Assembly (NCBI GenBank): GCA_964436825.1
Contig: CAYTEO010000001.1
Span: 9,035-73,034 of the forward strand
DNA length: 64,000 nt
Direction: 5' to 3'
DNA from: an uncultured Fibrobacteraceae bacterium
GTDB taxonomy: Bacteria > Krumholzibacteriota > Krumholzibacteriia > LZORAL124-64-63
Shown here: in pieces, positions 3,938-24,164 of the stretch
Layout: each line of letters starts with the position of its first letter
Position numbering within the stretch: position 1 is the stretch's first letter
Notes under the pieces: generated by a model
Seen by the model: the letters and a program-made list of their open reading frames with translations, nothing else
What the model was told of the DNA's origin: nothing
The model's database searches: none
Translations under genes and position numbers: made by a program

Positions 3938-3976
3938 GACGTTCGCCTCCTCGTGCTGCCCGGCCGGGTGGCGGGA

Positions 3977-4546
3977 TCAGGAGTTCTTGGCCTTCATGGC
4001 CATCCGGACGTACTCGTCCAGTGGCCTGTAGCCGACGAACTTGCCGGCGATCCGCCCGTCCGGGGTGATGAAGAAGGTGGTCGGGATGCTGCGCACGCCC
4101 CCGAAGGCGTTGGCCACCTCGGCTCCGCCCAGGACGACCTTGAAGGTGAAACCTTGCTGCTCGACGAACGGCTTGACGACCTTCAGCCCCTGCTGGTCGG
4201 TGGCGATGGCCACGACGACGATCCCCTGGTCCGCGTACTCGTCCTGGAGCTCCTGCAGGTGCGGCAGGGCGCGGCGGCACGGCGGGCACCAGGTGGCCCA
4301 GAAATCCAGGACGACCGTCTTGCCGCGGTAGTCGGACAGCTTGACGTGGTTGCCTTCCAGGTCGAGCAGGTCGAAGTCGGGGGCGACCGGCAACTCGGGC
4401 CCGGAGGCGGCGGCGGCGCCCTGCTCGCCGGCGGCGGCCTGCTCCTGGGGAGGGGCCTTCTCGCTGCAGCCGGAGACCAGGACGGTCAGGACGAGGACGG
4501 CGATCAGGGACAGGGTCTTGAACTTCACGTCGTGTTCCTTTCGCAT
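3977..4546 (-). CDS. tlpA: Thiol:disulfide oxidoreductase lipoprotein, TlpA/ResA-like thioredoxin fold.
   Basis: Signal peptide plus lipobox (LVSGCSE). WATWCPPC active site. The ATG overlaps the trxA stop by one base. The real start is the internal MRKEHD; the upstream part of ORF 3977..4927 is a frame artifact. Confidence 0.8.
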   Translation of the reverse strand: MRKEHDVKFKTLSLIAVLVLTVLVSGCSEKAPPQEQAAAGEQGAAAASGPELPVAPDFDLLDLEGNHVKLSDYRGKTVVLDFWATWCPPCRRALPHLQELQDEYADQGIVVVAIATDQQGLKVVKPFVEQQGFTFKVVLGGAEVANAFGGVRSIPTTFFITPDGRIAGKFVGYRPLDEYVRMAMKAKNS

Positions 4547-4872
4547 CACAGCAGCTTGCTCTCGATCTTCTCGACGATCTTGTCCTTGGGCGAGACGCCG
4601 ATCTGGGAGTCCACGACCTGGCCGCCCTTCATGTACAGGACCGTCGGGACGGACATGACCCGGAACTGCATGGCCGCGTTGCGGGCCTTGTCCACGTCCA
4701 CGTGGACGACCTTCAGCCGGCCGGCGTAGTCGTCGGCCAGCTCGGCGACGATGGGCTCGAGGTGCTTGCAGGGCCCGCACCAGGTGGCGCTGAAGTCGAC
4801 CAGGACCGGCAGCTCGCTCTGCAGGACCTCGGCGGCGAAGTTCTCGTCGGTGACGTGGATCACGTTGCTCAT
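4546..4872 (-). CDS. trxA: Thioredoxin.
   Basis: 108 aa with the WCGPCK motif. Typical TrxA length and sequence. Its ATG overlaps the dsbD stop (ATGA). Confidence 0.9.
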   Translation of the reverse strand: MSNVIHVTDENFAAEVLQSELPVLVDFSATWCGPCKHLEPIVAELADDYAGRLKVVHVDVDKARNAAMQFRVMSVPTVLYMKGGQVVDSQIGVSPKDKIVEKIESKLL

Positions 4873-6740
4873 CGTTCCTCCTGAGGCTGGGTCGTCCGGC
4901 CGCCGGTCGCGGCCCGGTCCAGGACACGCTGCAGCACGGGGATCACCTGCTCGGGGGATCGGAATCCCGAGAAGCGTTCCAGCTCGCTGCCGTCGGGAGC
5001 GAAGAAGATGACCGTCGGCATCCCCGCCACGCCGTAGCGGCGCAGCAGGGCGGTGTTGGTCTCCGACCTTTCGGTCATGTCCATTTTAAGCGGGATGAAG
5101 CCGCGGGCAAGTTCCAGCACCCGCTCGTCGCTCCAGGTCTCGTGGTCCAGCTCCTTGCAGGCGGCGCACCACTCGGCCCAGAAGTCCATGACCACCGGCC
5201 TGCCGGTGCGTTCCGCCTCCGCGAAGGCGGCCTCGACGTCGTGCCGCCAGGCGGGTTCCTCCGCGACGGTCGCCTCCGGCCCGGGCCGCCCGCCGGCCGG
5301 CAGCAGTCCCGGCGCCAGCCCCCGCAGTCCGCCCAGCAGCAGCAGGACCACGCCCACCGTCCAGACCAGCATCAGCACCCCCTTGCCCATCCCGGCCCGT
5401 GGCCCGGCGTCGGGGGGCAGGGGGCGCCACGCCCCCCAGGCGCTGGCGCTGAAGGCCAGCAGGACGCCCAGCATCGTCAGCAGCAGCCAGCCGGGCACGT
5501 ACAGGCGCAGGAACCAGAGGGCCAGCCCGTAGAGGACCAGGGCGAAGAAGTGCTTGACCTGTTCCATCCAGGCCCCCGCCCCGGGCAGGGCCGTCAGCAG
5601 GCCGCTGAAGGTCCCCAGGGCGATGAACAGCATCCCCAGGCCCAGGGCGAAGGTGAACAGCAGCCAGAAACCCAGCAGCAGGTTGCCGGTGGTCGCCACC
5701 CAGGTCAGCAGGACGATCAGGACCGGGCCGACGCACGGGGCGGCGATCAGGCCCATGGCCATCCCCATCAGCAGCGGTCCCAGGAAACCGGTGCGGGCGC
5801 CGCCGATCCGGGTGGTCAGCGACGACGGCGGCTGGATGTCGAACAGGCCGGCCATGGACAGTCCCATGGCCCCGATGACCGTCGCGACGATCCCGGCGAA
5901 CAGGGGAGTCTGGGTCGCCTGTCCGAAGGCGCCGCCGGTGGCCGCGGCCACCAGGCCCAGGGTCGAGTAGACGACGGCGATCCCCAGGACGTACCACAGG
6001 GACATGACGAACCCCTTGGCGGGGTTCCCCTTGGCACTGCCGCCGATGAAGCCGACGGTGATCGGGATCATGGGATAGACGCAGGGAGTGAAGCTGGCCA
6101 GGATCCCGCCCAGGAAGACCAGCAGGAAGGCCAGCCAGCTCCCCCGGTCCAGGGCGTCCTCCAGGCGGCCCTGCAGTCCCCGCGGCCGCTCCGGCCGCAC
6201 GTCGGCCGTCGCGTCGGCGGGATCCGCCGCGCCCGTCCGGGCCGACACGGCGGCATCGCCCGCCGGCGCCAGCGCCAGCTCGGCGCTCGTCTGCGCCCAG
6301 GCCGGCGCGTAGCAGAGTCCGGCCTCTCCCTCGCGGCAGAGCTGGTACTGGGCCTCGAGATCCACGCGCAGCGACGTGGCGCCCGCCGGCAGGCGGACCG
6401 GCACGACGGCCATGACGTCGCCCTTGTAGTAGCCGATCTCCTGCTCGACGATCGGCTCGGGGAAGACGGCCTGGCCGAAACCGGCCGGCGGTTCGCTCTG
6501 CCAGCGGAGCTGCTGGAAGGTCGAGGTCAGGTGGGTCCCCGCCGGCACGTGGTAGACGACGCCGAGGCGCCCCTCCCCGCCCGCGGGCAGCGGACCGAGG
6601 GGCCTGATCTCGACGGTGACGGCCGGCACCCCGCCCCCGGCGGGAGGGGTCCTGCCCAGGCCGGGTCCCGCCTGGACGACGACGGCCAGCAGCGTCAGCA
6701 GCAGCACGGGCAAAGCGATCCGGGCGATGCGACGGGACAT
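4869..6740 (-). CDS. dsbD: Thiol:disulfide interchange protein DsbD. It has an N-terminal periplasmic domain, a CcdA-like TM core and a C-terminal thioredoxin domain.
   Basis: TM core with a TPCVYPMIP motif. C-terminal FWAEWCAACKELD thioredoxin motif. The likely start is MSRRIARIALPVLLL (signal-like) with an AAGGAG RBS. Confidence 0.85.
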   Translation of the reverse strand: MSRRIARIALPVLLLTLLAVVVQAGPGLGRTPPAGGGVPAVTVEIRPLGPLPAGGEGRLGVVYHVPAGTHLTSTFQQLRWQSEPPAGFGQAVFPEPIVEQEIGYYKGDVMAVVPVRLPAGATSLRVDLEAQYQLCREGEAGLCYAPAWAQTSAELALAPAGDAAVSARTGAADPADATADVRPERPRGLQGRLEDALDRGSWLAFLLVFLGGILASFTPCVYPMIPITVGFIGGSAKGNPAKGFVMSLWYVLGIAVVYSTLGLVAAATGGAFGQATQTPLFAGIVATVIGAMGLSMAGLFDIQPPSSLTTRIGGARTGFLGPLLMGMAMGLIAAPCVGPVLIVLLTWVATTGNLLLGFWLLFTFALGLGMLFIALGTFSGLLTALPGAGAWMEQVKHFFALVLYGLALWFLRLYVPGWLLLTMLGVLLAFSASAWGAWRPLPPDAGPRAGMGKGVLMLVWTVGVVLLLLGGLRGLAPGLLPAGGRPGPEATVAEEPAWRHDVEAAFAEAERTGRPVVMDFWAEWCAACKELDHETWSDERVLELARGFIPLKMDMTERSETNTALLRRYGVAGMPTVIFFAPDGSELERFSGFRSPEQVIPVLQRVLDRAATGGRTTQPQEER

Positions 6741-6822
6741 GGACGTCTCCTTGGCGTCGGTAGCGATCACGGTACGCTCGGGCATGAGTGGCGCGGGGGC
6801 GCCGCCCGTCACGGGCGGCGCC

Positions 6823-7620
6823 TCACTGGAGGTGCTTCTCCTGCCGGTGATCGACGTCGTAGATCTTCAGGGGCAGGCCGTCGCTCTCGGTCAGAACCTC
6901 GGGCAGCCCGTCCCCGTCGATGTCGACCAGCTCGATGCGGGTGCCGAAGACCTGGTCCTCCCACTTGATGTCGCCGGTCCGGCTGTCGATGACCTGGCCG
7001 GTGTTGAGGACCAGCTCGGGGTTGCGGTCCCCGTCGACGTCGCCGACGGCGATGCGTGTCCCCTGGTATTCGCGCAGGCTGGTCCACTCGCGGTTGAAGG
7101 TCTTGCCGTCCAGGTAGTAGAGGTGGCTGTCGGCGTTGACGATGATCTCCCACTGGGGATCGTCGTCCACGTTGGCCGCGGTCAGGCAGGTGATCTGCGT
7201 GAAATCGTTGGGCAGGGTCTCGTAGCGCAACTTCAGGTCGTGGGCGGACCAGACGTAGATCATCGCCGAGCTCGTCCAGGCGATCAGCTCGTCCTTGCCG
7301 TCCCCGTCCAGGTCGGGAGCGATGACCTCGCGGACGATCCCGTCGAGCTGCTTGCTGGACCAGATCTCCTCGCTGCCGTCGCCGGTCAGGTAGTAGACCC
7401 GCACCAGGCCGAAGCGGTCCCCCAGCGCGATGTAGGGACCGAAGTCGTCCTCGCGGGTGTCGATCGCCACGATGTGGTCCAGCCGATCGGCGGCCCGCAG
7501 GGCGATCCTGTAGGCGTCGTAGGACAGCGGCGTGGGCTCGGCCGCGAGCAGTGGCGCGAACCAGCCCAGCAGCAGGCACAGGCCGAACACGACCTGGCCG
7601 AGATGTCGTTGGCCTCGCAT
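6823..7620 (-). CDS. Secreted FG-GAP/beta-propeller repeat protein.
   Basis: Internal start MRGQRHLG is followed by a signal-like hydrophobic stretch and preceded by GGAGGA. Repeated DxDGDG motifs (DLDGDGKDE, DVDGDRNPE, DIDGDGLPE) are typical of FG-GAP. Confidence 0.6.
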   Translation of the reverse strand: MRGQRHLGQVVFGLCLLLGWFAPLLAAEPTPLSYDAYRIALRAADRLDHIVAIDTREDDFGPYIALGDRFGLVRVYYLTGDGSEEIWSSKQLDGIVREVIAPDLDGDGKDELIAWTSSAMIYVWSAHDLKLRYETLPNDFTQITCLTAANVDDDPQWEIIVNADSHLYYLDGKTFNREWTSLREYQGTRIAVGDVDGDRNPELVLNTGQVIDSRTGDIKWEDQVFGTRIELVDIDGDGLPEVLTESDGLPLKIYDVDHRQEKHLQ

Positions 7621-7762
7621 GATTCCTCCCCGTTGCGTTCCCCGACGGCGCCTGCGGCGCCTCAGTGTCGCCCCGTAGGATAAGCCAGCAACGCCTCCCC
7701 GTCTACCCGCCGCTGCGTCCGGGGTTCCCGGCGGGAATGGGGGCCGGCGCGGTGGCGGGGAG

Positions 7763-10392: not shown

Positions 10393-11790
10393 TCATCTCG
10401 TGATGCGGACCGTCCAGGTCACGGGGACGGTCCCCCCGGCGGGGACCGCAGCGGTGAACCTGGCCGTCCCGGCGGAAGGCTGTTCCCACTCCAGGTTGCT
10501 GGCAAGGATGCGCCATTCGCGGGCGTCGATGGCGACGTCCAGCTCGATGCGCGCCGTCTGCCCGGAACGGTTCCGCAGCTCCACCCGCCACTGCCGCTCG
10601 ACGGTCTTCTCTCCCCGGGGCCGCACGCCCAGCTCCGTCGCCTCGGCGACGAGGTCGAAGGCACGGCCCGTCCGCAGGGAGATCTTCTCGCCGACCGGCG
10701 TGTGGCCGATGCGGTCCTCCCCCAGCAACAGCCGGCCGCCGGCGTCCGTCCGGCCGTAGACCCGGACGACCCCGGCGGGCAGGGGCTGGCCCAGGCCGTT
10801 GCGCTCGGTGAGACGCAGCTCGTAGTTCACCATCACCGGCAGGTTCTGCGTCCCGCCGACGGGCCGGCTCCCGCCCCTGAGGAGGAGGCGTGCCCGGTAC
10901 CGCTTGGTGACGTCAACTCCCGCCGCCCGGAGCAGCGCCACCTGCTTGCTGCTGTTGTCGGGCAGGTCCGTCCGCCACGGGATGGTGTAGAGGTGGTAGT
11001 CGCCGGCCGTGGATTCCTGGACGAAGGAGGCGACATCCGGCGCCATGGCGGCTTCCACGCCGCGAACGAGCCGGCGGGGTTGCGGCGCCCGGTGGATCTC
11101 ACCCGCCAGGAGCATGATCTGCGCCCCGGCGTAGCTGGCGCCGCTGCGGTTCTCCAGGGTCACCCATCCCTGCAGGTCGGCCTCCTTCTCCGACGGCGCC
11201 AGCTGCAGGACGTAGTCGGCCGACCAGGAGAGGCCGCCGGTCAGGTAGGAGACGTCCAGGGACCGCTTCCCGGCCCGGTCGGCCGACAGGTCCCAGACGA
11301 GCGTGGGGCGGACCCGCAGGTCCGCCGGCAGCTCCGGCAGGGCCAGCCGGCCCGGCACATCGAAGACGATCTCACCGTCGATGCGGTAGACCGGGCCGCC
11401 GGCGAGCCCGACGAGCGTGCCGCGGATCCGCCGACCGTCCTCCTGGATCCAGGACAGCTCCTGGCCGACGTACTTCTCCAGGATCCTGTCGCGCGACAGG
11501 AGGTCGAACTCGTAATGCTGTTCCCTGACGACGAGGGGCAGACCGTCGGCGACCTCGACGATGAGGGTCCGGGGATCGATCCGGCCGGGGACGTCCAGGA
11601 ACTCCAGGACGCTCTCCCCCGCCGGCACCTCGACGGAGCGGGCCTCCTGGACCAGCCCCAGGTCCTGGTTCGTGACGGTGATCCGCAGATCACCGCGCTC
11701 CGCCGCGGTGCTGCGCAGGTTGCCGGCGGCCAGGGACGGAACGGCGAGCGCCAGCAGGATGGCCGTGTGGAGCAGTGATCGTTGCCGCAT
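10393..11790 (-). CDS. DUF4139/DUF4140 domain protein (MuiA-like), secreted.
   Basis: Start MRQRSLLHTAILLALAVPSLAA (signal) with a GGAGGG RBS. The architecture and length are typical of the DUF4139 family. Confidence 0.6.
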   Translation of the reverse strand: MRQRSLLHTAILLALAVPSLAAGNLRSTAAERGDLRITVTNQDLGLVQEARSVEVPAGESVLEFLDVPGRIDPRTLIVEVADGLPLVVREQHYEFDLLSRDRILEKYVGQELSWIQEDGRRIRGTLVGLAGGPVYRIDGEIVFDVPGRLALPELPADLRVRPTLVWDLSADRAGKRSLDVSYLTGGLSWSADYVLQLAPSEKEADLQGWVTLENRSGASYAGAQIMLLAGEIHRAPQPRRLVRGVEAAMAPDVASFVQESTAGDYHLYTIPWRTDLPDNSSKQVALLRAAGVDVTKRYRARLLLRGGSRPVGGTQNLPVMVNYELRLTERNGLGQPLPAGVVRVYGRTDAGGRLLLGEDRIGHTPVGEKISLRTGRAFDLVAEATELGVRPRGEKTVERQWRVELRNRSGQTARIELDVAIDAREWRILASNLEWEQPSAGTARFTAAVPAGGTVPVTWTVRITR

Positions 11791-11898
11791 GGTTCTCCCT
11801 CCTCGCGAAAGCGGACCCGGATCGGAACTCAAGGAACATCCCGGATTGCCGACGGTTCCCTAGCCGGCCGCCGCGACCGCCGGCAGGAGGTGTTCCCC

Positions 11899-12279
11899 TT
11901 GCATCCGACCGTGCTGATCGTCGACGACACCGAGCTGCTGCGCTTCCTGATGCGGGAGCTGCTGGACGAGCTTCCCCTGGGGCTGGTCGCCGGGGCCGGG
12001 ACGCCCGAGGAGGCGATCCGTCTGGCGCAGACCCTCGGTCCGGAGCTGATCGTCGTCGACTGGACGGGCCCGGTGGCGGCCGGTGAGCTGCTGGCCGTCC
12101 TGCGGCGGATCACCCCGGTGGCGAGGCTGGCGGCCGCGGTCCTGCACGCCGACGAGCGCAGCGCCGCGGCGGCCCGCCGGGCCGGCGCCGAGATCGTCCT
12201 CTGGAAGCCCTATTCCCGGGCAGAGACGCTGGCCGTCCTGGCGGAGGCACTCACCCCCCGGTCCCCCGCAGTCTGCTGA
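11899..12279 (+). CDS. Stand-alone response regulator receiver (CheY-like) domain protein.
   Basis: VLIVDDTELLRFLMRELL...LIVVDWTGP...LWKPYS receiver motifs. A TTG start is preceded by AGGAGG at a spacing of 8 nt. Confidence 0.55.
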   Translation: MHPTVLIVDDTELLRFLMRELLDELPLGLVAGAGTPEEAIRLAQTLGPELIVVDWTGPVAAGELLAVLRRITPVARLAAAVLHADERSAAAARRAGAEIVLWKPYSRAETLAVLAEALTPRSPAVC

Positions 12280-14688: not shown

Positions 14689-15156
14689 TCACCGCTCGGG
14701 AAGAACGATCCCCAGGCAGCGGGACACCGCCTGCCGGAACAGCGGCGCCGGATCCTCCACCTCGTCGCCGACCCGCGGCAGCCAGTGGCGCCAGGCAGCC
14801 GCCAGCTCGTCTGCCAGCAGGATCCAGCCGTCGACGCGCCGCCGGGCCCGCTCCACCACCTCCGGGTGATAGACGACGATGTCGTCCAGCAGGGCGTCGG
14901 CCAGCCGCAGCGGCCAGTCCTGCCGCCCGGTCGCCTCCGTCACCGGGGTGCCGGACGCCTCCGGCGCGGTCGTCCCCCTCACGGAGCGGACCGCCGCCGG
15001 CACGTCGAACGGCAGGCCGCAGCCGGGACAGCGCACCCGCAGCCGACGCCGGGGCGCGATGCCGTCGGGAAGGCGGTAGACGGCGTGGCAGTGGGGACAG
15101 ATCAGTTCCAATTCGGTCACCTCGCGGCGGGGAGCGTCCTCTCTCCCCTTCCCCAT
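14689..15156 (-). CDS. MJ0042-type zinc-ribbon domain protein.
   Basis: N-terminal CPHC...CPGC zinc-ribbon pair (ICPHCHAVYRLP...VRCPGCGLPF). Start at MGKGRED. Confidence 0.5.
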   Translation of the reverse strand: MGKGREDAPRREVTELELICPHCHAVYRLPDGIAPRRRLRVRCPGCGLPFDVPAAVRSVRGTTAPEASGTPVTEATGRQDWPLRLADALLDDIVVYHPEVVERARRRVDGWILLADELAAAWRHWLPRVGDEVEDPAPLFRQAVSRCLGIVLPER

Positions 15157-15220
15157 CGACCCCCGCGGCGCCGACTTGACCCTCGACCCGCACGATCCGC
15201 GGCAGACCGACGGCGCGGGG

Positions 15221-17305
15221 TCAACCCACCCCGCCGGTGACGAGCCAGCGTGCCGCCGTCTCGTCCAGTCCCTGCCGCAGGACGGCGTGGGCGGGGTCGA
15301 GCAGCTGCTCGTCGGCGGCCAGGATCCGCTGCACGTCCGCGGCGGCCGCCTGCACGAGATCGGCGTCCCGCAGGGGATTGGCGAACCGGAAGCCCGGGGC
15401 CCCGTGCTGGCGGACGCCGTGCAGATCCCCCGGTCCGCGCAGACGCAGGTCCTCCTCGGCCAGTCGGAAACCGTCGTGGGTCCGCGCGAACATGGCCAGG
15501 CGCTGCCCGCTCTGGGCGGCCACCTCCTGGTCGACGACGAGCAGGCAGACGGCCTGCCGCTCCCCCCGACCGACCCTGCCCCGCAGCTGGTGGAGCTGGG
15601 CCAGGCCGAACCGTTCGGGGTTGTGGATGACGATGACCGTGGCACCCGGCACGTCGATCCCCACCTCGACGACCGTCGTCGCCACCAGCAGACGCAGTTC
15701 CCCCGCCGCGAAGTCGGTCATGATCCGCTGTTTCTCCGCGGCCGGCAACCGGCCGTGGAGCAGGCCGATCCGCTGGCCCCGCAGCGGTCCCTCCCGCAGG
15801 CGCGCGAACTCCGCCTCGGCGGCGCGCAGGTCCTGGCTCTCGGTCTCCTCGATGACCGGGACGACGACGAAGGCCTGCCGCCCCCGCTCCAGCTGCTGCG
15901 CCAGGTAGCGGTCGACCTCCCCGAGGCGGTGCTCCGGGACGATACGGGTCGTCACCGGGCGGCGGCCCGCCGGCAGCTCGTCGATGAGCGAGAGAGCCAG
16001 GTCCCCGTAGAGGGTCATGGCCAGGCTGCGCGGGATCGGCGTGGCGCTCATCACCAGCAAGTGGGGCGGGACCGGCTGCGCGCCCGCCTGGACGGCGCGC
16101 GTCCGCTGGCGGACACCGAAGCGGTGCTGCTCGTCGACGACGGCCAGGCCGAGGGAGCGGAAGGCGACGTCGTCCTGCAGGACGGCATGCGTGCCCACCA
16201 GCAGGTCGATCTCCCCGCCGGCCAGATCGGCCAGCAGCCGGCGGCGATCGGCGGCGGGGGTCCCTCCGGTCAGGGTCTCGACGCGGACCCCGACCGCCTC
16301 GCAGAGCCGCCGCGCCGTCTCCCCGTGCTGCCGGGCCAGGACCTCGGTGGGCGCCATCAGCAGCGCCTGGTGTCCCTGCTCGATGACGAACAGAGCGGCG
16401 ATCAGGGCCACCAGCGTCTTGCCGCAGCCCACGTCCCCCTGCAGGAGCCGGTGCATGGCCCGGCCGCTGCGCATGTCGTGGAGGATCTCTGCCAGGACGC
16501 GACGCTGGGCACCGGTCAGGGCGAACGGCAGCGCCGCGACGAAGCGCGTCGTCAGGTCGCCCGGCGGCCCGAGCCGCAGGCCGGCCCCCCGCTGCCGCTC
16601 CCGCCGGCGCAGCGCCAGCAGGAGCCGCAGCTGGAAGAGTTCCTCGTAGACCAGCCGCCGCCGCGCCGCCGCGTAGGCCTCGACCGAGTCGGGGAAGTGG
16701 AGCTGGCGCAGGGCCTCGCCGCGGGGCAGCAGCCCCCTGGCGTCGCGCAGCGCCGCGGGCAGGGTCTCCGTCAGCGCGGGGGCGAGCTGTTCGAGGGTGG
16801 CGTGGACGAGCCGGCGCAGCCAGTGCTGGCCGATCCCCGCGGTCAGGGGGTAGATGGGCACGAGCCGGCCGCTGTGGAGCGTCTCCGCCTCCCTGTCCAG
16901 GATCTCCAGGTCGGGATGGACGACCTGCAGGCGTCCCTGCCAGCGCTGACAGCGGCCGCTGACCAGGACACGCGTCCCGCTGCGAAGCTGCTTCAGGATC
17001 CAGGTGCTCCGGAACCAGACGCAGAACAGGACGCCCGTCCCGTCGCCCACGCTGACGGTCTGGATCGTCCGCCGGCCCGCCGTCCGGCGCTCCCCCGCCG
17101 TCAGGACCGTCCCCTGGACGGTGACGTCGGCGCCGGGGACCAGCCCGCCGATCGGCACGACGCGGCTGCGGTCCAGGTATCCCCGCGGCGCGTGCAGGAG
17201 CAGGTCGCCGGCGGTGGCGATCCCGAGGCGGGCCAGCGCCCTGGCCCGGACGGGACCGACCCCCTTGAGAAACTGGACCGGGGTCTCCCACGTCAGCGGC
17301 GGCAC
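15221..17305 (-). CDS. recG: ATP-dependent DNA helicase RecG.
   Basis: 694 aa. Wedge domain, then the SF2 helicase Walker A GDVGCGKT, DEQHRFG (DEAH-like) and the C-terminal HQLRGRVGRG motif. Confidence 0.9.
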   Translation of the reverse strand: MPPLTWETPVQFLKGVGPVRARALARLGIATAGDLLLHAPRGYLDRSRVVPIGGLVPGADVTVQGTVLTAGERRTAGRRTIQTVSVGDGTGVLFCVWFRSTWILKQLRSGTRVLVSGRCQRWQGRLQVVHPDLEILDREAETLHSGRLVPIYPLTAGIGQHWLRRLVHATLEQLAPALTETLPAALRDARGLLPRGEALRQLHFPDSVEAYAAARRRLVYEELFQLRLLLALRRRERQRGAGLRLGPPGDLTTRFVAALPFALTGAQRRVLAEILHDMRSGRAMHRLLQGDVGCGKTLVALIAALFVIEQGHQALLMAPTEVLARQHGETARRLCEAVGVRVETLTGGTPAADRRRLLADLAGGEIDLLVGTHAVLQDDVAFRSLGLAVVDEQHRFGVRQRTRAVQAGAQPVPPHLLVMSATPIPRSLAMTLYGDLALSLIDELPAGRRPVTTRIVPEHRLGEVDRYLAQQLERGRQAFVVVPVIEETESQDLRAAEAEFARLREGPLRGQRIGLLHGRLPAAEKQRIMTDFAAGELRLLVATTVVEVGIDVPGATVIVIHNPERFGLAQLHQLRGRVGRGERQAVCLLVVDQEVAAQSGQRLAMFARTHDGFRLAEEDLRLRGPGDLHGVRQHGAPGFRFANPLRDADLVQAAAADVQRILAADEQLLDPAHAVLRQGLDETAARWLVTGGVG

Positions 17306-17331
17306 CGGTTTCCTCCCCAGGTGAAAAGGAC

Positions 17332-17360
17332 TTGCCGGGTGGCGGGGCTCATGTTAGATT
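17332..17360 (+). promoter_or_regulatory. Candidate sigma-70 promoter for rpmB (TTGCCG-17 nt-TAGATT).
   Basis: -35-like and -10-like hexamers with a 17-nt spacer, about 40 nt upstream of the rpmB ATG, in the divergent recG/rpmB region. Confidence 0.3.
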
Positions 17361-17399
17361 CCTCGATCTGTGAATGCAATCCCGGGAGGACGCGACGCC

Positions 17400-17591
17400 A
17401 TGAGCAGGAAATGCACGATCTGCGGCAAGGGGCCCCAGTACGGCAACAGGGTCAGCCATGCCCACAACCTGACCCGACACCGCTGGCTGCCCAACCTGCA
17501 GAAGATCAAGTTCGAGCTGGACGGCAAGGTGCAGCGGGGCTACGTGTGCACCCGTTGTCTGCGGACCGGCCACGTCCGCAAGGTCGTCTGA
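17400..17591 (+). CDS. rpmB: 50S ribosomal protein L28.
   Basis: [34 protein letters not shown] matches the L28 family. GGGAGGA RBS. Confidence 0.85.
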
Positions 17592-17594
17592 GCC

Positions 17595-19022
17595 TCACCG
17601 CACGCGCTTGAACAGGTGATACAGCCCTCCCGACCTGACGGGAGGGCTGACCTGTCTGGGCGCGAGGGTGACGATGACCTTGCGCAGGTCCGCCACCATG
17701 TCACGCGGATCGACCCAGCCGATGTCCCCTCCCCTGGCGGCCGTCGGTCCCACGCTGTAGCGCGTGGCCAGCAGGGCGAAGTCCCGGCCCCGCGAGAGTT
17801 CATCCAGGACGGTCGCCAGCGTCGTCGAGTCGGGTGTGACGATGTGCTGCAGCTCGACCTTGCCCTCGGCCAGGGCGCGCCGCTCCTCCTCGAGGCGGGC
17901 GGTGACCTGCTGCCGCCAGTTCTCCACCTCGTCGCGATCCACGTCGGGCCTCAGCTGCAAGGTATCCAGCAGGCTGACCAGACGGTGATCGTCGCCCATC
18001 TTCTCCAGGACCCGTCCCTTCAACACCCAGGCGCCGGTCAGGTTGCTGTCGAGCGCCGTGGCCCGGTCCAGCTGGACCAGCGCCTCGCGGAGACGTCCCT
18101 GTCCGTCCAGGTGGGCAGCATAGTTGAGCCTGCCCAGCGGATCCGCGGGTTCCAGGGCGAGGTATTCGGCGAACTCCCGCTCGGCCTCGTCGAACGCGCC
18201 CCGCAGTTCCAGGACGTTGGCCAGGTTGAAGCGGACGCGGCCGAGCGAGGGGTCCTTCTGCCGGGCCCGTCGCAGGACCGTGACGGCCTCGTCCAGGCGG
18301 TTGGCGGCGAACAGGGCCTCGCCCAGGGTCGACAGTGAGGCGGCGCTCGAGTCGGCGGCCACGGCCAGGCGACCGGCCTCGACGGCATAGGCGGTGTCCC
18401 CGGCGATGATCGCCAGCTCGCCGGCGGTCCGGTAGTCCTCGGCCGCCGGTTCGCTGCCCGCCAGGGCGTCGCGCCAGTGGTCGAGGGCCTCCCGCCACAG
18501 CCCCCGGCGACGGGCCAGCAGCGACAGGGTCCGGTGGACCCAGGGTCGGCCGCCGGTGACACGGGCGAGCTGGGTCAACAGGCCGTAGGCCGCCTGGTCG
18601 TCCGCGGTCTCCAGCTTGCTGTGCGCCAGGGCCTCCAGGGTGGGGGCATGGGAGGCATCCAGGCCCAGGGCCGTGTTCCATTCGCGCTCGGCCGCCTGCC
18701 GGTCACCGGAGGCCAGCAGTGCCCTCCCGTACCAGTAGTGTGCCGCCACGGAATCGGGTGCAGCGGCGACCGCCTCGTCCCCCCAGCGGACCGCCGCGCC
18801 GGCGCGTTCCTGCCGCAGGGCCATGGCGCAGAGTGCCAGCAGCGGTTGCAGGGTGCGCTCCTGGGCGACGCAGCGGACCAGCAGCGATTCGGCGGCGGCG
18901 AACTGCTGCCGGCGGAACAGCTCCATCCCCCGGTCGCACGGCGAGGACTGCTGTGCCCGCAGCGGGGCGGCGGCGAGCAGGAGCAGCACCAGCAATGGAA
19001 CGGGGCGGCGAGGACCTATCAT
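17595..19022 (-). CDS. Secreted TPR-repeat protein with a C-terminal PpiC/parvulin-type peptidyl-prolyl isomerase domain (SurA/PrsA-like).
   Basis: Start MIGPRRPVPLLVLLLLAAAPLRAQQ (signal). TPR units in the middle. C-terminal parvulin motifs ...GGDIGWVDPRDM...GGLYHLFKRV. Confidence 0.7.
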   Translation of the reverse strand: MIGPRRPVPLLVLLLLAAAPLRAQQSSPCDRGMELFRRQQFAAAESLLVRCVAQERTLQPLLALCAMALRQERAGAAVRWGDEAVAAAPDSVAAHYWYGRALLASGDRQAAEREWNTALGLDASHAPTLEALAHSKLETADDQAAYGLLTQLARVTGGRPWVHRTLSLLARRRGLWREALDHWRDALAGSEPAAEDYRTAGELAIIAGDTAYAVEAGRLAVAADSSAASLSTLGEALFAANRLDEAVTVLRRARQKDPSLGRVRFNLANVLELRGAFDEAEREFAEYLALEPADPLGRLNYAAHLDGQGRLREALVQLDRATALDSNLTGAWVLKGRVLEKMGDDHRLVSLLDTLQLRPDVDRDEVENWRQQVTARLEEERRALAEGKVELQHIVTPDSTTLATVLDELSRGRDFALLATRYSVGPTAARGGDIGWVDPRDMVADLRKVIVTLAPRQVSPPVRSGGLYHLFKRVR

Positions 19023-19051
19023 GGTGACAGCTCCCGTCGGGACGTGACGTC

Positions 19052-20704
19052 TCAACCGATCCAGCGACGGACCGGATCGAGCCAGAAAGCAGGGTCCAGC
19101 CAGGTCCAACGCAGATCCTCGGGGTGGAGTTCCCGGTGACGGTGCAGCAGGGCCGCGGCGCGGGCGGTCCTCTCCTGCTGGTGGAGCAGGAACAGCTGGT
19201 GGACGACCAACGCGGGCGGACTCGCCCCGGGCAGCGGCTCGGTCCCGGGATCGTCCAGCCGGAGCTGGACCTCGCCGAGCAGGAGGGCCAGGGCGGCCGT
19301 GGGCGGCCCCTCGTCGAGCAGGGAGCGCAGGATCTGGAGCGAGATCAGCGGCATCTCCTGCAGGTGGGCCCGGGCCTCCAGGAACCGCCAGGCAGGACGG
19401 GCGGCCAGATCGTCGGGGATCCCCTCCGGCAGGGATTCCCCGCGGGCGAAGGCCAGGTGCGCCGACAGGAGGGCATGTTCGAGGTAGGCGGCAGGCACGC
19501 CGTCCTCCTGCAGGGGCCACTGGAGCAGCAGCTGTTCCACCTGGTCGACGCGGCCGCGCTCCAGCAGCAGACAGGCCGCCTGCCACCGGTAGTCGGCCTC
19601 GTCGCGCCAGCGGGCCGCCAGCTCCAGCAGGCGGTCGGCGGCCTCGCCCATGCGGCCCTGGAGGTGGGCGACCGCCGCCCTGAGCTGCTCCGCGCGCGGG
19701 AACGACCCGGAGAGATCGCCCCAGGACTCCAGCCTGCCGAGGACACGGTCCAGGTTGCCGGTCAACAGGTCGAGCACACCGCCCAGATAGGCACAGAACA
19801 GCTCCTCGGCCGGATGGCCGACGACCGGATCGGTCAGCTGGGGCTGGCCGGCGATGACCTCGGCCGCCTCCCGGAAGCGCTGCTGGTCGGCCAGGACCAG
19901 CGCCTTGAGATGGGCGGCCGTCCGGTAGCGGGGCCGGAGCTGGAGAGCGCGATCCACCTGGTGGAGGGCCTCCCGGTTCCGGTGTGTCTGGAAGAGGGCG
20001 GCAGCCAGCTTGACCCGGTAATCGGGATACGTGGGGTGCCGGCGGCAGAGGTCGGCCAGGGCGGTGATCCCCTCTTCCCAGCGCCCCTGCTCGCAGAGCC
20101 GGATGGCCGCCGCCAGTTCTGCTTCGTTGCCGGAGGCGGCGATGGCCTCGGCGAGGCGCTCCTCGAGATCGTCCGGCAGGTTCTCCGGGGTGAACGGTGC
20201 CGCCTGCTGGTAATAGCGGACGAGGGCGTGATCGACCCTCTGTCCCGAGTCGACCAGGGCGTTGAGGCTGGCGCTGGCCGCCTCGGGTCGATCGAGGTGG
20301 ACGAAGGCGACGGCCTCCAGCAGGCGCGCCAGGATGTAGTCGGCGTTGAAGCGCAGCGCGTTCTGGGCCGCGGCGAGGGCCTCGGCCCACTGGTTCGCCA
20401 CCCCCAGCGCGTGACCGTACCAGAACTGGATGTCCGGCAGGGTGGGCCAGCGACCGGCCGCCTCGCCCAGCAGGTTCGTGGCCGTGGCGATGTCGCCCAG
20501 GGACAGTCGCCGCCGGCCCTCCTGGACGAGGGCCTGCCTCAGGTAGAAGGCGGCCAGCGAGGGCCCGTGACCCTCCTCGCCCCGCTGTTCCACCTCGCGC
20601 AGGATGGTGATGGCACGGGCGAAATCGCCCTTCTCGAAGGCCGCGACGGCCTGGCTGAAGGACCGCCCACCTCCCCTGCCGAAGATGCGCCCCAGCAGTG
20701 ACAT
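19052..20704 (-). CDS. Cytoplasmic TPR-repeat protein, translationally coupled to ftsZ.
   Basis: 550 aa and helical/TPR-rich with no signal peptide. The start ATG overlaps the ftsZ TGA by 1 nt (TGATG). Confidence 0.65.
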   Translation of the reverse strand: MSLLGRIFGRGGGRSFSQAVAAFEKGDFARAITILREVEQRGEEGHGPSLAAFYLRQALVQEGRRRLSLGDIATATNLLGEAAGRWPTLPDIQFWYGHALGVANQWAEALAAAQNALRFNADYILARLLEAVAFVHLDRPEAASASLNALVDSGQRVDHALVRYYQQAAPFTPENLPDDLEERLAEAIAASGNEAELAAAIRLCEQGRWEEGITALADLCRRHPTYPDYRVKLAAALFQTHRNREALHQVDRALQLRPRYRTAAHLKALVLADQQRFREAAEVIAGQPQLTDPVVGHPAEELFCAYLGGVLDLLTGNLDRVLGRLESWGDLSGSFPRAEQLRAAVAHLQGRMGEAADRLLELAARWRDEADYRWQAACLLLERGRVDQVEQLLLQWPLQEDGVPAAYLEHALLSAHLAFARGESLPEGIPDDLAARPAWRFLEARAHLQEMPLISLQILRSLLDEGPPTAALALLLGEVQLRLDDPGTEPLPGASPPALVVHQLFLLHQQERTARAAALLHRHRELHPEDLRWTWLDPAFWLDPVRRWIG

Positions 20705-22056
20705 CAGTCCCGGTACTTGCGGGTGTAGGCCGGCCGGGTCAGGTCCGGATCCTCGGGTCGCGACCAGAGGGACCGACCGTGGTTGACCGGTCTGCCCGGG
20801 GAGCGGTTGGCCGGCGGGACGAGCGGGGAAGGGGCCGCCGGACCGGGAACGGGATCGTCGGCCTCGGGCCAGTCGTTGACGACTGCCCGCCGTGGCTCGG
20901 GGCGGAGGTGGGTGTCAGGGTCGGGCACGACGCTGACCAGGGGTTCGACCAGCGCGGCGGGAGTCTCGTCCACGCGGGCCGGTGCCTCCGTGACGACAGG
21001 TTCCTCGACCGGGACGGTCCCGGAGGGAACGGCACGTCCCAGCACATCGGCACCGCCTGCCGCCGCGGCCAGGGCCTGCCGCGGCTGGCGGGACCGGTCG
21101 GTCTCGGGGAAGCCGGTGGCGATGACGCTGACCTGCAGGGTGTCCCCCAGCTCGGGATCGGTGCCGTAGCCGAAGATGATGTGCGCCTGGTCCCCGGCCG
21201 CCTCCTGGACGAGGGTCATCACCGTGTTGGCCTCCTGCAGGGCCACGTCGCCGCTGGACAGGTTGACCAGCACCCCCCTGGCCCCGCGGATCTCGACGTC
21301 CTCCAGCAGGGGCGAGTGGAGCGCCTGCCGCGCCGCCTCCTCGGCCCGGTTCTCGCCGGTCGCCTTGCCGGTGCCCATCAGGGCGACGCCCATGCCCGCC
21401 ATGATGGAGCGGACGTCGGCGAAGTCCAGGTTCACCTGGTGGGGCTTCATGATGATGTCGTGGATGCTGCGGGTCGCCTCGTAGAGGACGTTGTCGGCGA
21501 TGCGGAACGCCTCGCTCATGGAGGTCGAGGGCGGCACCACGTCCAGCAGCCGCTGGTTGGGGATGACGATCAGGGTGTCCACCGCCTCGCGCAGCTCGTC
21601 GAGTCCCGCCTCCGCCTGGCGCATCCGCACGCGTCCCTCCCAGTGGAACGGCTTGGTGACGATGCCGACGGTCAGCGCCCCGCTCTCGCGCGCGGTCCGG
21701 GCCACGACGGGTGCCGCGCCGGTCCCGGTCCCCCCGCCCATGCCGGCGGTGACGAAGACCATGTCGCTGCCGACGAGGATCTCCCGCAGGGCATCGAGAT
21801 CCTCCTCGACGGCCTGGCGCCCCACCTCGGGGTTGCCTCCGGAGCCGAGCCCACGCGTGGCCTCGCTGCCGATCTGGAGCGTCTGGTCGGCCAGGGAGCC
21901 GTGGAGGGCCTGCAGGTCGGTGTTGACGGCGATGAACTCCACACCGACCAGACCGGCCTCGATCATGCGATTGACGGCATTGCCCCCGGCGCCACCGACA
22001 CCGACGACGCGGATCCGGGCCAGGGACTGGTCTGGTTCGACGAGCTGGAACATCAT
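20704..22056 (-). CDS. ftsZ: Cell division GTPase FtsZ.
   Basis: GGGTGTG tubulin signature (GMGGGTGTGAAPVVA), NTDLQAL, and a C-terminal conserved peptide. AAGGAGGAGAGG RBS. Confidence 0.95.
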   Translation of the reverse strand: MMFQLVEPDQSLARIRVVGVGGAGGNAVNRMIEAGLVGVEFIAVNTDLQALHGSLADQTLQIGSEATRGLGSGGNPEVGRQAVEEDLDALREILVGSDMVFVTAGMGGGTGTGAAPVVARTARESGALTVGIVTKPFHWEGRVRMRQAEAGLDELREAVDTLIVIPNQRLLDVVPPSTSMSEAFRIADNVLYEATRSIHDIIMKPHQVNLDFADVRSIMAGMGVALMGTGKATGENRAEEAARQALHSPLLEDVEIRGARGVLVNLSSGDVALQEANTVMTLVQEAAGDQAHIIFGYGTDPELGDTLQVSVIATGFPETDRSRQPRQALAAAAGGADVLGRAVPSGTVPVEEPVVTEAPARVDETPAALVEPLVSVVPDPDTHLRPEPRRAVVNDWPEADDPVPGPAAPSPLVPPANRSPGRPVNHGRSLWSRPEDPDLTRPAYTRKYRD

Positions 22057-22187
22057 GACGCCCCTCTCCTCCTTGATCGGGAACGGTCATTCGATGCAGC
22101 AGGATCTCCTGTCATGGTTATTAGCATACCATCAGCCGCCGGCCAACCGCTTTTTTCCGTGCGGGAGGAAAAAAAGGCGCCTCGCGG

Positions 22188-23408
22188 TCAGCCCCGGAAG
22201 AACCGCCGCAACTTGCCGAGCATCCCCTTCCCGTCCGCCGCGTCCGGCTCGGACGGCTGGTCCGCCGTCCCGCCGCCCAGGACGGTCAGGGCCGCCCCGA
22301 CGGCCGTCGCCCAGCCGGGCCCGGGCAGCGCCTCGGGATTGACGACCCGCAGCGGATCGAGACGGCGCCGGCAACGGACCCCGAGCACCTCCTCGCAGAG
22401 CTGTTCCGTTCCGGCACAGAGGCTGCCGCGACCGGTGACGACGACCCCCTCCCCCAGGCCCCCGGCCTCCAGGGCATCCCCCATCCCCTCGCGGACAAGC
22501 CCCAGGATCTCCTCCAGCCGCGGCTCCAGGATGGCGGCCACCAGACCCGGCGTCTCCTCGGGGTCCTCCTCCTCGAACAGGATCTCGGGATCGACGTCCT
22601 CCCCGGCGAGGGAGCGCAGGACGACTCCTCGGGTGCGCTTGATCCGCTCGGCCTCGTCCAGGCCGATCCGCAGCCCGTGCGCCAGGTCGTGGGTCAGGTG
22701 GTCCCCACCCCAGGGAACGCTGCCGCATCCCTGGAGCCGACCGTGGCGCACGACGATCCACGCTGTCCGCTCGCCGCCCACGTCGATCAGCGCCACGCCG
22801 GCCTCCCGCTCCGCGGGGGTGAGCAGGGCGTCGGCAGTGGCCAGGATGTCGATGGCCCAGCCGGCCGGCTGGAACCCCGCCTTGTCGATGGTGTGCTCGA
22901 GGTTGTGCTGGACACTGCGCGAGCCGGTCACCAGCAGGGCGTCGACCTCGAGCCGGTGCCCCGGACGGCCCACCGGCTCCAGGACGCCGCCGATCCCGTC
23001 GACCGTGTAGTGGACGGGATGGACGCCGAGGATGGCATGGTCGAAGGGAATGGCCAGGGAGCGTGCCTTCTCCAGGACGGCCTCCACGTCGTCCGGCGCG
23101 ATCTCCTCGCGGTGGGGAGGCACCTGGTGCTGGCTGCGGACCGCGATCGTCCGCAGGTGTCCGCCCCCCAGGGTGTAGCAGAAGCCGGAGATGTCGACCT
23201 CGGCCGCCTGCTCCGCCAGGCGGACCGCCTTGGCCAGGGCCCGGCTCCCGGCCGGGACGTCGACGAAGTCCCCGTCCCGGTACCCCGCGGCGGGTGCCTC
23301 GCCGGCCCCCACGACACGGAGCTCCCCACCGGGCAACGAGCGGGACACCAGCACGCGGAACATGCTGCTACCCAGGTCCACCGAGACGATCAGCATCTCC
23401 TGTTCCAT
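22188..23408 (-). CDS. ftsA: Cell division protein FtsA (actin-like ATPase).
   Basis: 406 aa. VDLGSSMFRV N-terminal phosphate-1 motif and VALIDVGGERT phosphate-2 motif. Located immediately upstream of ftsZ. Confidence 0.9.
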   Translation of the reverse strand: MEQEMLIVSVDLGSSMFRVLVSRSLPGGELRVVGAGEAPAAGYRDGDFVDVPAGSRALAKAVRLAEQAAEVDISGFCYTLGGGHLRTIAVRSQHQVPPHREEIAPDDVEAVLEKARSLAIPFDHAILGVHPVHYTVDGIGGVLEPVGRPGHRLEVDALLVTGSRSVQHNLEHTIDKAGFQPAGWAIDILATADALLTPAEREAGVALIDVGGERTAWIVVRHGRLQGCGSVPWGGDHLTHDLAHGLRIGLDEAERIKRTRGVVLRSLAGEDVDPEILFEEEDPEETPGLVAAILEPRLEEILGLVREGMGDALEAGGLGEGVVVTGRGSLCAGTEQLCEEVLGVRCRRRLDPLRVVNPEALPGPGWATAVGAALTVLGGGTADQPSEPDAADGKGMLGKLRRFFRG

Positions 23409-23429
23409 CGTCAGCTCTCCGTTCGCGAC

Positions 23430-24164
23430 TCAGTCCAGGGGACGCCTGGTGATCTGCCGCGAGAAGCGCAGATCGACCCGTCCCCCCGGATCCAGCTGTC
23501 CGGCGACTGCGAGATAGCGCTGCAGCCGCTGCCTGAACCCACTCCCGCCGAGGACCAGTTCCCGCCGCGCCTGCCCGCCGAGGATCAGCGCGTAGCCGTC
23601 CGGTCCGCAGCGGACGAAGTCCACCGGGGCGACGGTCTCCAGACCGGTCTCCGCCACCGCCGTGCACAGCTCCACCAGCTCCCGCCGCCGCTCCGGGGAC
23701 GGTTCCTCCCCCCGGGGCGACAACAGCAACGGCAGGTCGGGGACCGGCACCGCCGCCGGCAGTTCGGCCACGCCGCCGTCGTCGAGCAGCACCCGGGGAC
23801 GCTCCCCGTCGTCCGGTTCCCCCAGCAGGAGCAGGGGACGGTGCTCGATCAGCAGCACGGACAGGGTCCGGGGCGGCCGCCGCCGGACCTCGGCCCGCTC
23901 GACCCAGGGCAACCGCTGCAGCTCGCGGGCCAGCTCCCCCGTCCGCAGCGACCAGAGGTTCCGCCCCAGCCACTCTCGCAGCACGGCCTCCAGCGTGTCC
24001 CGGTCCGTGTAGCGATAGCGACCCGTCGTCACCGTCGCCACGGCGAAGCGGGACGAGGTCGTCAGCCAGCGGACCGCGCCCGCGGCCGACATCAGCACCA
24101 GGCCGGCCACCCCGATCAGCAACCAGCGGCGCGGGGAACGGCGGCGGCGGCGACGGCGGGCCAT
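23430..24164 (-). CDS. ftsQ: Cell division protein FtsQ (POTRA domain).
   Basis: Arg-rich N-terminus, a single TM (WLLIGVAGLVLMSAAGAV), then a POTRA/FtsQ periplasmic domain. Start at MARRRRRR (within ±3 nt). Upstream ORF sequence is a frame artifact. Confidence 0.75.
   Translation of the reverse strand: MARRRRRRRSPRRWLLIGVAGLVLMSAAGAVRWLTTSSRFAVATVTTGRYRYTDRDTLEAVLREWLGRNLWSLRTGELARELQRLPWVERAEVRRRPPRTLSVLLIEHRPLLLLGEPDDGERPRVLLDDGGVAELPAAVPVPDLPLLLSPRGEEPSPERRRELVELCTAVAETGLETVAPVDFVRCGPDGYALILGGQARRELVLGGSGFRQRLQRYLAVAGQLDPGGRVDLRFSRQITRRPLD

Follow-up and report, generated by a model that had tools for sequence, protein, structure and literature searches.

Organization of the ftsZ locus

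We analysed a stretch of 64,000 nucleotides (nt) from an uncultured Fibrobacteraceae bacterium (contig CAYTEO010000001.1 of assembly GCA_964436825.1), which is called the window hereafter, and focused on the gene that directly follows ftsZ. The G+C content of the window is 72%, and the region in question belongs to a minus-strand cluster of division and cell-wall genes, of which it forms the distal end. In this region, ftsA and ftsZ are followed by a gene for a 550-amino-acid (aa) protein with tetratricopeptide repeats (TPR), which we call TPR550, and then by a gene for a secreted TPR protein that ends with a parvulin-like domain (TPR-parvulin). The convergent rpmB gene comes next, and then recG, with which the conserved syntenic block ends on its downstream side (Table 1). 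TPR550 is the last cistron attached to ftsZ. The product of ftsZ belongs to the FtsZ family: it passes the curated cut-off, has both domains of the family and ends with the C-terminal peptide DLTRPAYTRKYRD, which is of the conserved docking type bound by FtsZ partners.

Read on the minus strand, the junction of the two genes is ...tac cgg gac TGATGtcactg, and the two codons share the A at position 20704, which closes the ftsZ stop TGA and opens the TPR550 start ATG. An earlier interpretation of this DNA made from the letters alone (the sequence-only reading) had placed the start codon of the TPR gene on the ftsZ stop with an overlap of one nucleotide, and base 20704 bears this out. A scan for Shine-Dalgarno sequences found none before TPR550 in the window, where the upstream sequence is ccgggacTGATG, and found the GGAG type before ftsZ (AGGAGGAGAGG, strong), ftsA, ftsW and the TPR-parvulin gene (GGGAG).

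Conservation of the ftsZ-TPR junction in related genomes

To see how the genes are arranged in relatives, 64 related loci were fetched. Wherever the upstream flank was ~1 kb or longer, ftsA-ftsZ lies directly upstream of the TPR gene on the same strand. The junction was read in 55 loci (the window counted), whose TPR homologues are 36-54% identical, and it turned out that the open reading frame (ORF) ending just before the TPR start closes with the FtsZ C-terminal peptide in all of them (55 of 55). From the ftsZ stop to the TPR ATG there is 1 nt in most loci (40 loci; TGAnATG) and 2-4 nt in 11 loci, while the overlap (-1 nt) occurs in a single locus, the window, and a gap of 22-57 nt in three (L033, L017 and L035). 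Since the junction recurs in all 55 related loci, the arrangement is not due to chance.

More distant homologues with fetched genomic context (L060-L064), which show ~20-28% identity and have relatives labelled Krumholzibacteria or Eisenbacteria, also lie directly after ftsZ in all five cases. Their gaps are 9 nt (L060), 62 nt (L061), 12 nt (L062), 15 nt (L063) and 153 nt (L064). In some of these loci the downstream neighbour differs (L061 and L063 have a radical-SAM gene there, L064 a glycosyltransferase gene), and the ftsZ-TPR adjacency persists. The sequence-only reading had proposed a synteny check in relatives as its test, and the ftsZ-TPR order passed it in all loci examined, 55 close and 5 remote. 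The block conserved in the phylum is larger and runs ftsA-ftsZ-TPR550-(TPR-parvulin)-rpmB-recG-rimP-nusA.

The length of the gap goes together with the ribosome-binding site. The junction is 4 nt or shorter in 52 of the 55 loci, and the TPR550 gene of the window lacks a Shine-Dalgarno sequence of its own; before the TPR start of the longer-gap loci L017, L035, L033, L060, L061, L063 and L064 there is a GAGG-, GGAG- or GGAGG-type sequence, and L062 has only a weak match. A Shine-Dalgarno sequence that is missing at the short junction and mostly present at longer gaps is the pattern predicted by true reinitiation coupling. Termination-reinitiation is classically recognised by a junction of at most 4 nt that lacks a ribosome-binding site, and for this reason we regard the co-translation of TPR550 with FtsZ, probably by this mechanism, as well supported by the sequence comparison. 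The sequence-only reading had called TPR550 “stoichiometrically coupled” to FtsZ. Coupled expression agrees with the junction and with the missing Shine-Dalgarno sequence; “stoichiometrically” goes too far, because reinitiation sets a ratio, which need not be 1:1.

Several further observations were made on these loci. The FtsZ C-terminus is nearly always (S/A/E)PAYTRKYMD across L001-L058 (PAWERKYVD in one sub-clade and PAYTRKYRD in the window), and this ending of the clade replaces the common P-A/T-F-L-R-K/R form. The remote lineages, which have the longer ftsZ-TPR gaps, keep the FLRR/FLRK form as PAFLRR.MD or PTFLRKQLD. In two loci (L006 5532-6999 and L063 608-1674) ftsZ is split or uncalled, and tblastn finds the gene in two frames, which is probably an assembly frameshift and not a pseudogene. 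In most relatives a stand-alone CheY-like receiver gene (~130 aa) is located on the opposite strand between TPR550 and TPR-parvulin; in the window it lies elsewhere (Table 1). Single-domain receivers beside division genes may be regulatory. For L064, the order at 3769-7626 is ftsQ-ftsZ-TPR, ftsA being missing between the first two genes, and a tblastn search of the whole 13.6-kb locus gave no FtsA match. Among full-length homologues, the one closest to the L064 TPR protein bears the label Candidatus Eisenbacteria. Should this genome lack ftsA altogether, the TPR protein would be a candidate for the sole tether.

Features of the TPR550 protein

TPR550 is a member of the TPR superfamily, with matches to TPR_19 (55.5 bits; cut-off 25) and ANAPC3 (32.9 bits; cut-off 27.2) and a helical solenoid model. 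Neither a signal peptide nor a membrane span was found in it, the highest Kyte-Doolittle hydropathy over 19 residues being 1.13. The Pfam matches and the lack of such segments agree with the earlier description of a 550-aa cytoplasmic TPR protein. The AlphaFold2 model, made from an alignment of 40 sequences, is all-alpha with ~31 helices (mean predicted local distance difference test score, pLDDT, 90.5; predicted template modelling score 0.72). In the Foldseek comparison with PDB the top matches are generic TPR superhelices (the TPR domain of OGT, SPINDLY and APC3), and a sequence-profile search of PDB adds Tom70 and PEX5, which are also peptide-binding TPR superhelices.

The alignment of the family shows two conspicuous motifs, one at either end of the protein. 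Residues 1-9 follow the consensus M-S-L-[LIWF]-x-[RK]-[LFI]-[LF]-G and are near-invariant in 40 homologues, which supports the start codon of TPR550. Residues 1-6 are unpacked in the AlphaFold2 model (pLDDT < 50). The peptide has hydrophobic residues at i, i+1, i+4 and i+5 and R/K at position 6, and its hydrophobic moment in the family is 0.42-0.82, compared with an average of 0.35 for internal 9-mers of the same proteins. The reference peptides gave 0.48 for Escherichia coli MinD (KGFLKRLFG) and 0.53 for Bacillus subtilis SepF. The motif also resembles the C-terminal end of the window FtsA (GKGMLGKLRRFFRG), which has the appearance of an amphipathic membrane-targeting helix, with a moment of 0.86 (LGKLRRFFR). 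In remote groups the motif appears as MSLFGRLFG, MFRRWFG or MALFGRLFA. From its sequence pattern, the N-terminus of TPR550 is a candidate amphipathic membrane-targeting or docking helix.

The C-terminal end is conserved as well. It has the consensus W-L-x-P-x-F-W-L-x-P-V-R-x-W-I, with nearly invariant columns at W535, L536, F540, W541, L542, P544, R546 and W548. Helices are modelled at 531-535 and 538-549, and the pLDDT of the block is 97 for residues 531-540 and 81 for residues 541-550. A related W-L-x-P motif is carried by the remote homologues.

Distribution of the TPR550 family

A homologue search among 5.8 billion proteins gave ~100 clusters of full-length TPR550 homologues (545-591 aa, 36-54% identity, 100% query coverage). 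After the last full-length cluster of the family the E-value leaps from ~1e-56 to 1e-6, and the family is sharply defined. The source labels of the full-length family are all Candidatus Krumholzibacteria or Krumholzibacteriota, save genome record L001 (Fibrobacteraceae).

In a profile search of 1.84 billion representative proteins, a second tier was found, which consists of collinear proteins of 520-565 aa with E-values of 1e-53 to 1e-28. They share 19-24% identity with TPR550 of the window over the whole length and have the N-terminal motif and the repeat-turn motifs in common with it. Their clusters are labelled Krumholzibacteria (P0125, P0174) and Eisenbacteria/Eiseniibacteriota (P0273, P0152, P0209). 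The TPR proteins of the remote loci L060-L064 are 24-32% identical to TPR550 of the window over aligned segments, with profile E-values of 1e-28 to 1e-49. When alignment A2 was used as a profile to search for remote homologues, most of the output consisted of long TPR proteins of no relation (PrsT-like proteins, for example), and the gain was a few family members and one Eisenbacteria label.

Besides, the TPR550 profile is matched over its N-terminal half, starting at residue 1, by some complete TPR proteins of ~300 aa (P0160, P0172, P0187, P0194, P0197, P0237, P0245 and P0247), and the match takes in the motif MSLLGRLFGFGRN..Y..GI..F..G.Y..A. P0197 comes from Fimbriimonadaceae (Armatimonadota), and the others include unlabelled lineages.

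We found no description of the TPR550 family in the literature on TPR-type FtsZ partners or on genes downstream of ftsZ. The Krumholzibacteriota titles listed in a literature search are those of metabolic and ecological studies only, and none of them concerns cell division.

Comparison with known FtsZ partners

For FtsA, ZipA, SepF, EzrA and ZapA-D, no match to TPR550 was found in Pfam or NCBIfam (E <= 0.01) or among solved structures. EzrA of Firmicutes is a protein of ~560 residues that consists of alpha-helical repeats throughout, has an N-terminal membrane anchor on the inner face and acts via the FtsZ C-terminal peptide. The layout suggested for TPR550 is similar, with a membrane anchor at the N-terminus and ~550 residues of helical repeats behind it. 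However, the anchor of EzrA is a true transmembrane helix and its repeats are spectrin-like triple helices, instead of a candidate amphipathic helix and TPR hairpins; EzrA is not known to be encoded beside ftsZ, and it has no sequence or fold match to TPR550. SepF and FtsA both place a short amphipathic helix on the membrane and bind the FtsZ C-terminal peptide, and sepF lies downstream of ftsZ in many Gram-positives. The membrane helices of SepF, FtsA and MinD resemble the N-terminal motif of TPR550, whereas the folds of SepF, FtsA and ZipA are unrelated to it, and FtsA is already encoded in the same operon as TPR550.

The sequence-only reading had also stated that known FtsZ modulators are not TPR proteins. 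This is too strong, since ZipN/Ftn2 of cyanobacteria and ARC6 of plant chloroplasts are membrane-attached organisers of the Z-ring that have a TPR domain and bind FtsZ (PMC7766704). These proteins are a precedent for a TPR-containing FtsZ partner. They differ from TPR550 in that they also carry an N-terminal DnaJ domain, which serves ring localisation, and a C-terminal transmembrane domain (PMC7766704). Neither a DnaJ match nor a hydrophobic segment was found in TPR550, which therefore does not belong with them, and they are not known to be translationally coupled to ftsZ. By these comparisons of sequence and fold, TPR550 fails the tests for every known FtsZ-partner family.

Other TPR families were tried too. 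PrsT, MamA, PilW, Tgl and BamD are like TPR550 in their TPR repeats and give weak NCBIfam matches, and TPR550 was rejected as a member of any of them because its scores (17-45 bits) are far below the cut-offs (81-312). With the exception of MamA, these proteins differ from TPR550, which lacks a signal peptide, in being secreted or lipoproteins. LapB was rejected as well, its score being far below the curated cut-off.

Possible role of TPR550 and alternative explanations

The sequence-only reading had suggested a lineage-specific factor associated with the Z-ring. With moderate confidence, TPR550 is best read as a lineage-specific FtsZ-associated division factor of Krumholzibacteriota and their Eisenbacteria-labelled relatives, on account of the conserved gene order, the junction of 1-4 nt and the lack of a Shine-Dalgarno sequence. 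Ribosomes that finish FtsZ would reinitiate on TPR550, and the amount of TPR550 would then track that of FtsZ at a fixed ratio, probably a lower (sub-stoichiometric) one. The N-terminal helix (M-S-L-L-x-R-[LF]-[LF]-G) would sit on the inner face of the cytoplasmic membrane, like the helices of MinD and FtsA. The TPR groove may grip an extended peptide of the divisome, for which the FtsZ C-terminal peptide or linker would be the most likely target. TPR550 would thus serve, in addition to FtsA, as a second, membrane-associated tether or organiser of the Z-ring, and would resemble EzrA in its layout. In E. coli the ratio of FtsZ to FtsA is critical for division, which gives a rationale for the ratio-locked expression of an FtsZ partner.

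A bolder form of this proposal, which we find rather doubtful, is that TPR550 founds a class of TPR-type tethers or organisers of the Z-ring, with the helix on the membrane, the groove on the FtsZ peptide and the amount locked by reinitiation. If so, in a lineage of the L064 type, without ftsA at the cluster, the TPR protein may replace FtsA, and the ~300-aa homologues of Armatimonadota would be a minimal version of the same device.

Several points weigh against a role in division, and most of them fit with a passenger of the operon, i.e. a protein that is made together with ftsZ but does a job without FtsZ binding, for example as an interaction scaffold in envelope or growth processes, and is kept in place by conservative gene order. 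The order of the whole region is conservative: within the block, the neighbours rpmB, recG, rimP and nusA are conserved to the same degree, so the ftsZ-TPR adjacency alone is non-specific. Unrelated genes can be stable neighbours of ftsZ, as with lpxC, which follows ftsZ in E. coli and is not known to be connected with the Z-ring, and ylmD/ylmE, which follow ftsZ in Gram-positives. The fold of TPR550 is generic, and its structure matches confirm a TPR scaffold and indicate no specific function. The N-terminal motif is also carried by the ~300-aa proteins of Armatimonadota and may have a function unrelated to FtsZ. Moreover, FtsA with its membrane-targeting helix is present, and a tether is not obviously missing. 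We also compared the distance matrices of FtsZ, TPR550, FtsA, TPR-parvulin and RecG over 19 loci (mirror-tree), and no specific co-evolution of FtsZ and TPR550 was seen (partial r 0.09 controlling for RecG) in what is a weak test, uninformative because the GTPase domain of FtsZ varies too little and all of the faster-evolving proteins show mutual correlation. Yet the junction of 1-4 nt without a Shine-Dalgarno sequence is maintained across homologues of 36-54% identity, a link much tighter than that of lpxC or ylmD, and the adjacency to ftsZ outlasts the change of the other downstream neighbours in remote lineages. We consider the passenger explanation possible but less likely.

It could also be imagined that TPR550 and the secreted TPR-parvulin form a module of the envelope, cooperating for example in the biogenesis of envelope proteins, and that the link to ftsZ is a transcriptional convenience. 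The two genes are indeed same-strand neighbours in the window, in all close relatives with enough flank and in one remote lineage (L062). Their proteins, however, occupy different compartments, the opposite-strand response-regulator gene splits the pair in many relatives, the parvulin gene is replaced in L061, L063 and L064 while ftsZ-TPR is intact, and it has its own Shine-Dalgarno sequence, all of which makes such a module improbable. Fusion of FtsZ with TPR550 through programmed frameshifting or stop-codon read-through was suggested by the TPR frame, which is one base off the ftsZ frame in most loci, and by the loci with a 3-nt gap, such as L002, where a single in-frame stop separates the genes. 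But lineages differ in the frame of one gene relative to the other (-1 in the window, +1 at a 1-nt gap, +2 at 2 nt and 0 at 3 nt), and there is no slippery sequence, GAC-TGA offering no re-pairing; on these two grounds the fusion was rejected. It is made still harder to conceive by the free end of the FtsZ C-terminal peptide that is needed in known systems and by the matches, among which no homologue is fused to a Tubulin domain.

The proposed role of TPR550 as an FtsZ-associated factor bears on a field in which FtsZ tethering and organisation are understood in few model phyla only, and in which newly studied lineages gave unrelated solutions, namely ZipA, SepF, EzrA, SepH, ZipN and FzlA. The TPR550 family is undescribed and occurs throughout its phylum, and it would be an FtsZ-linked accessory protein on a fold not used in this way before. 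Its tie to ftsZ, a 1-nt junction with no ribosome-binding site of its own, is tighter than that of almost any known accessory gene. If TPR550 binds FtsZ, a TPR-based class of Z-ring partners would be added, there would be a natural case in which a cytoskeletal protein and its cofactor are expressed at a locked ratio, and a first view of cell division in the uncultured Krumholzibacteriota and Eisenbacteria would be gained. If it does not, the locus would be a caution that even very tight operon linkage to ftsZ need not mean a role in division. The question can be addressed with recombinant proteins, and no culture of the organism is needed.

The TPR-parvulin protein downstream of TPR550

The stop codon of TPR550 (19052-19054) and the next ATG (19020-19022) leave a spacer of exactly 29 nt. 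The ORF that begins there starts with MIGPRRPVPLLVLLLLAAAPLRAQQ, which is signal-peptide-like as called from inspection of the sequence. The Rotamase domain (PF00639) matches at residues 402-473 with 51.2 bits (cut-off 21.7), and there are several TPR matches too. The sequence-only reading had announced a second gene 29 nt further on with a signal peptide, TPR and a PpiC/parvulin end, and was right on this gene. In every close locus with enough flank, TPR-parvulin is the next same-strand gene after TPR550. Homologues have a hydrophobic N-terminus and then a conserved (D)PC motif.

Two minor observations concern this N-terminus. For an identical gene in L065 (3710-5110), the JGI call starts 27 nt downstream at a TTG, so that the signal peptide loses its positively charged beginning; the ATG at 19022 is preceded by GGGAG at a distance of 9 nt and is a better start than this TTG. 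The conserved Cys stands a few residues past the predicted cleavage site; the motif around it reads (D)DPC.xG in relatives, the window has QQSSPCDRG, and it is no lipobox.

To inspect the active site, 33 sequences of the family (the window included) were aligned with E. coli PpiC and human Pin1. Both active-site His residues are kept across the alignment. At the position of Cys113 of Pin1 there is Gly in 32 of the 33 sequences, the window among them (...YSVGPT... vs ...SICPS... in PpiC), and the remote L062 is gapped there. With Gly at the catalytic Cys/Asp position, the activity as a peptidyl-prolyl isomerase (PPIase) is uncertain. Among solved structures, the domain is closest to PrsA and to the first of the parvulin domains of SurA; like the latter, it may act as a chaperone and have little isomerase activity.

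The protein belongs to none of the families SurA (NF008038), PrsA (NF002846) and PpiD (NF008054), for which it scores 24-36 bits against cut-offs of 361-493, with only the parvulin stretch aligning. It is like these proteins in being secreted and in combining a parvulin domain with a substrate-binding chaperone module, and differs from them by a TPR array in place of the N-terminal domain of SurA or the NC domain of PrsA. By this analogy we read the TPR array as the putative substrate-binding module of the chaperone. The suggestion of the sequence-only reading that the TPR-PPIase could act on the divisome now looks weak, as the gene is displaced in some lineages and the catalytic Cys/Asp position is Gly, and nothing in our analysis ties the protein specifically to the divisome. 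From its sequence, TPR-parvulin probably does not belong to the ftsZ-TPR550 module, and a general chaperone of the periplasm, of the SurA/PrsA type, is the likelier reading.

Other features of the region

The coordinates of all features are summarized in Table 1. The stop codons of rpmB and the TPR-parvulin gene are 3 nt apart. When positions 17000-23600 were scanned, no promoter-like site was found, and there was one terminator-like match, with 0.8 expected by chance. At 31 nt 3' of the rpmB stop, and within the last coding part of the TPR-parvulin gene, which is convergent with rpmB, there is a G+C-rich inverted repeat with perfect arms of 10 bp (cagccctccc / gggagggctg) and a loop of 8 nt. 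It is not followed by a T-run and may be a terminator or stabiliser of rpmB.

Table 1. Positions of genes and sequence features in the window (locus coordinates where a related locus is named)
Feature	Position	Strand	Evidence or remark
ftsA, 406 aa	22188-23408	minus	Pfam FtsA and SHS2_FTSA
Terminator-like match	22099-22112	plus	between ftsA and ftsZ
ftsZ, 450 aa	20704-22056	minus	TIGR00065, 412 bits (cut-off 295); PF00091 Tubulin and PF12327 FtsZ_C
FtsZ C-terminal peptide, coding region	20707-20745	minus	translation
TGATG stop/start overlap, ftsZ/TPR550	20702-20706	minus	sequence
TPR550 gene, 550 aa	19052-20704	minus	Pfam TPR_19 and ANAPC3
TPR550 N-terminal motif MSLLGRIFG	20678-20704	minus	near-invariance in homologues
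TPR550 Trp-rich conserved C-terminal segment WTWLDPAFWLDPVRRWIG	19055-19108	minus	alignment
Spacer with GGGAG Shine-Dalgarno-like sequence for the TPR-parvulin gene	19023-19051	minus	sequence
TPR-parvulin gene, 475 aa	17595-19022	minus	Pfam TPR_2, TPR_14, TPR_19 and Rotamase PF00639
Predicted signal peptide MIGPRRPVPLLVLLLLAAAPLRA, then conserved Cys (QQSSPC)	18954-19022	minus	sequence
Conserved Cys motif past the predicted cleavage site	18936-18953	minus
Parvulin-like domain, residues ~385-475	17598-17870	minus	alignment
Inverted repeat	17622-17649
rpmB (ribosomal protein L28), convergent	17400-17591	plus	ORF translation; PF00830 at the equivalent position in relatives
recG	15221-17305	minus	ORF; RecG Pfam domains in the equivalent genes of relatives; tblastn 57-66% identity
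Zinc-ribbon domain protein	14689-15645	minus	PF13717
ORF, 150 aa	14148-14600	plus	no Pfam match
Canonical TPR protein, 321 aa	13159-14124	minus
Receiver gene in the window	11782-12279	plus	just beyond bacA; same relocation in L007
Receiver gene in relatives	L002 8684-9079; L003 8693-9085; L004 2525-2923; L006 8726-9118; L008 8735-9127	minus (locus orientation)
ORF, 447 aa	37889-39232	minus	no Pfam match (E <= 1e-5)
ORF, 801 aa	40225-42630	minus	no Pfam match (E <= 1e-5)
ORF, 825 aa	45363-47840	minus	no Pfam match (E <= 1e-5)

Between recG and bacA there are three genes, for the 321-aa TPR protein, the 150-aa ORF product and the zinc-ribbon protein, and the same arrangement is apparently present in L007. 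Upstream of the mraZ end of the division cluster, the three long ORFs of 447, 801 and 825 aa have a strong coding signal, with a G+C content at third codon positions (GC3) > 0.9.

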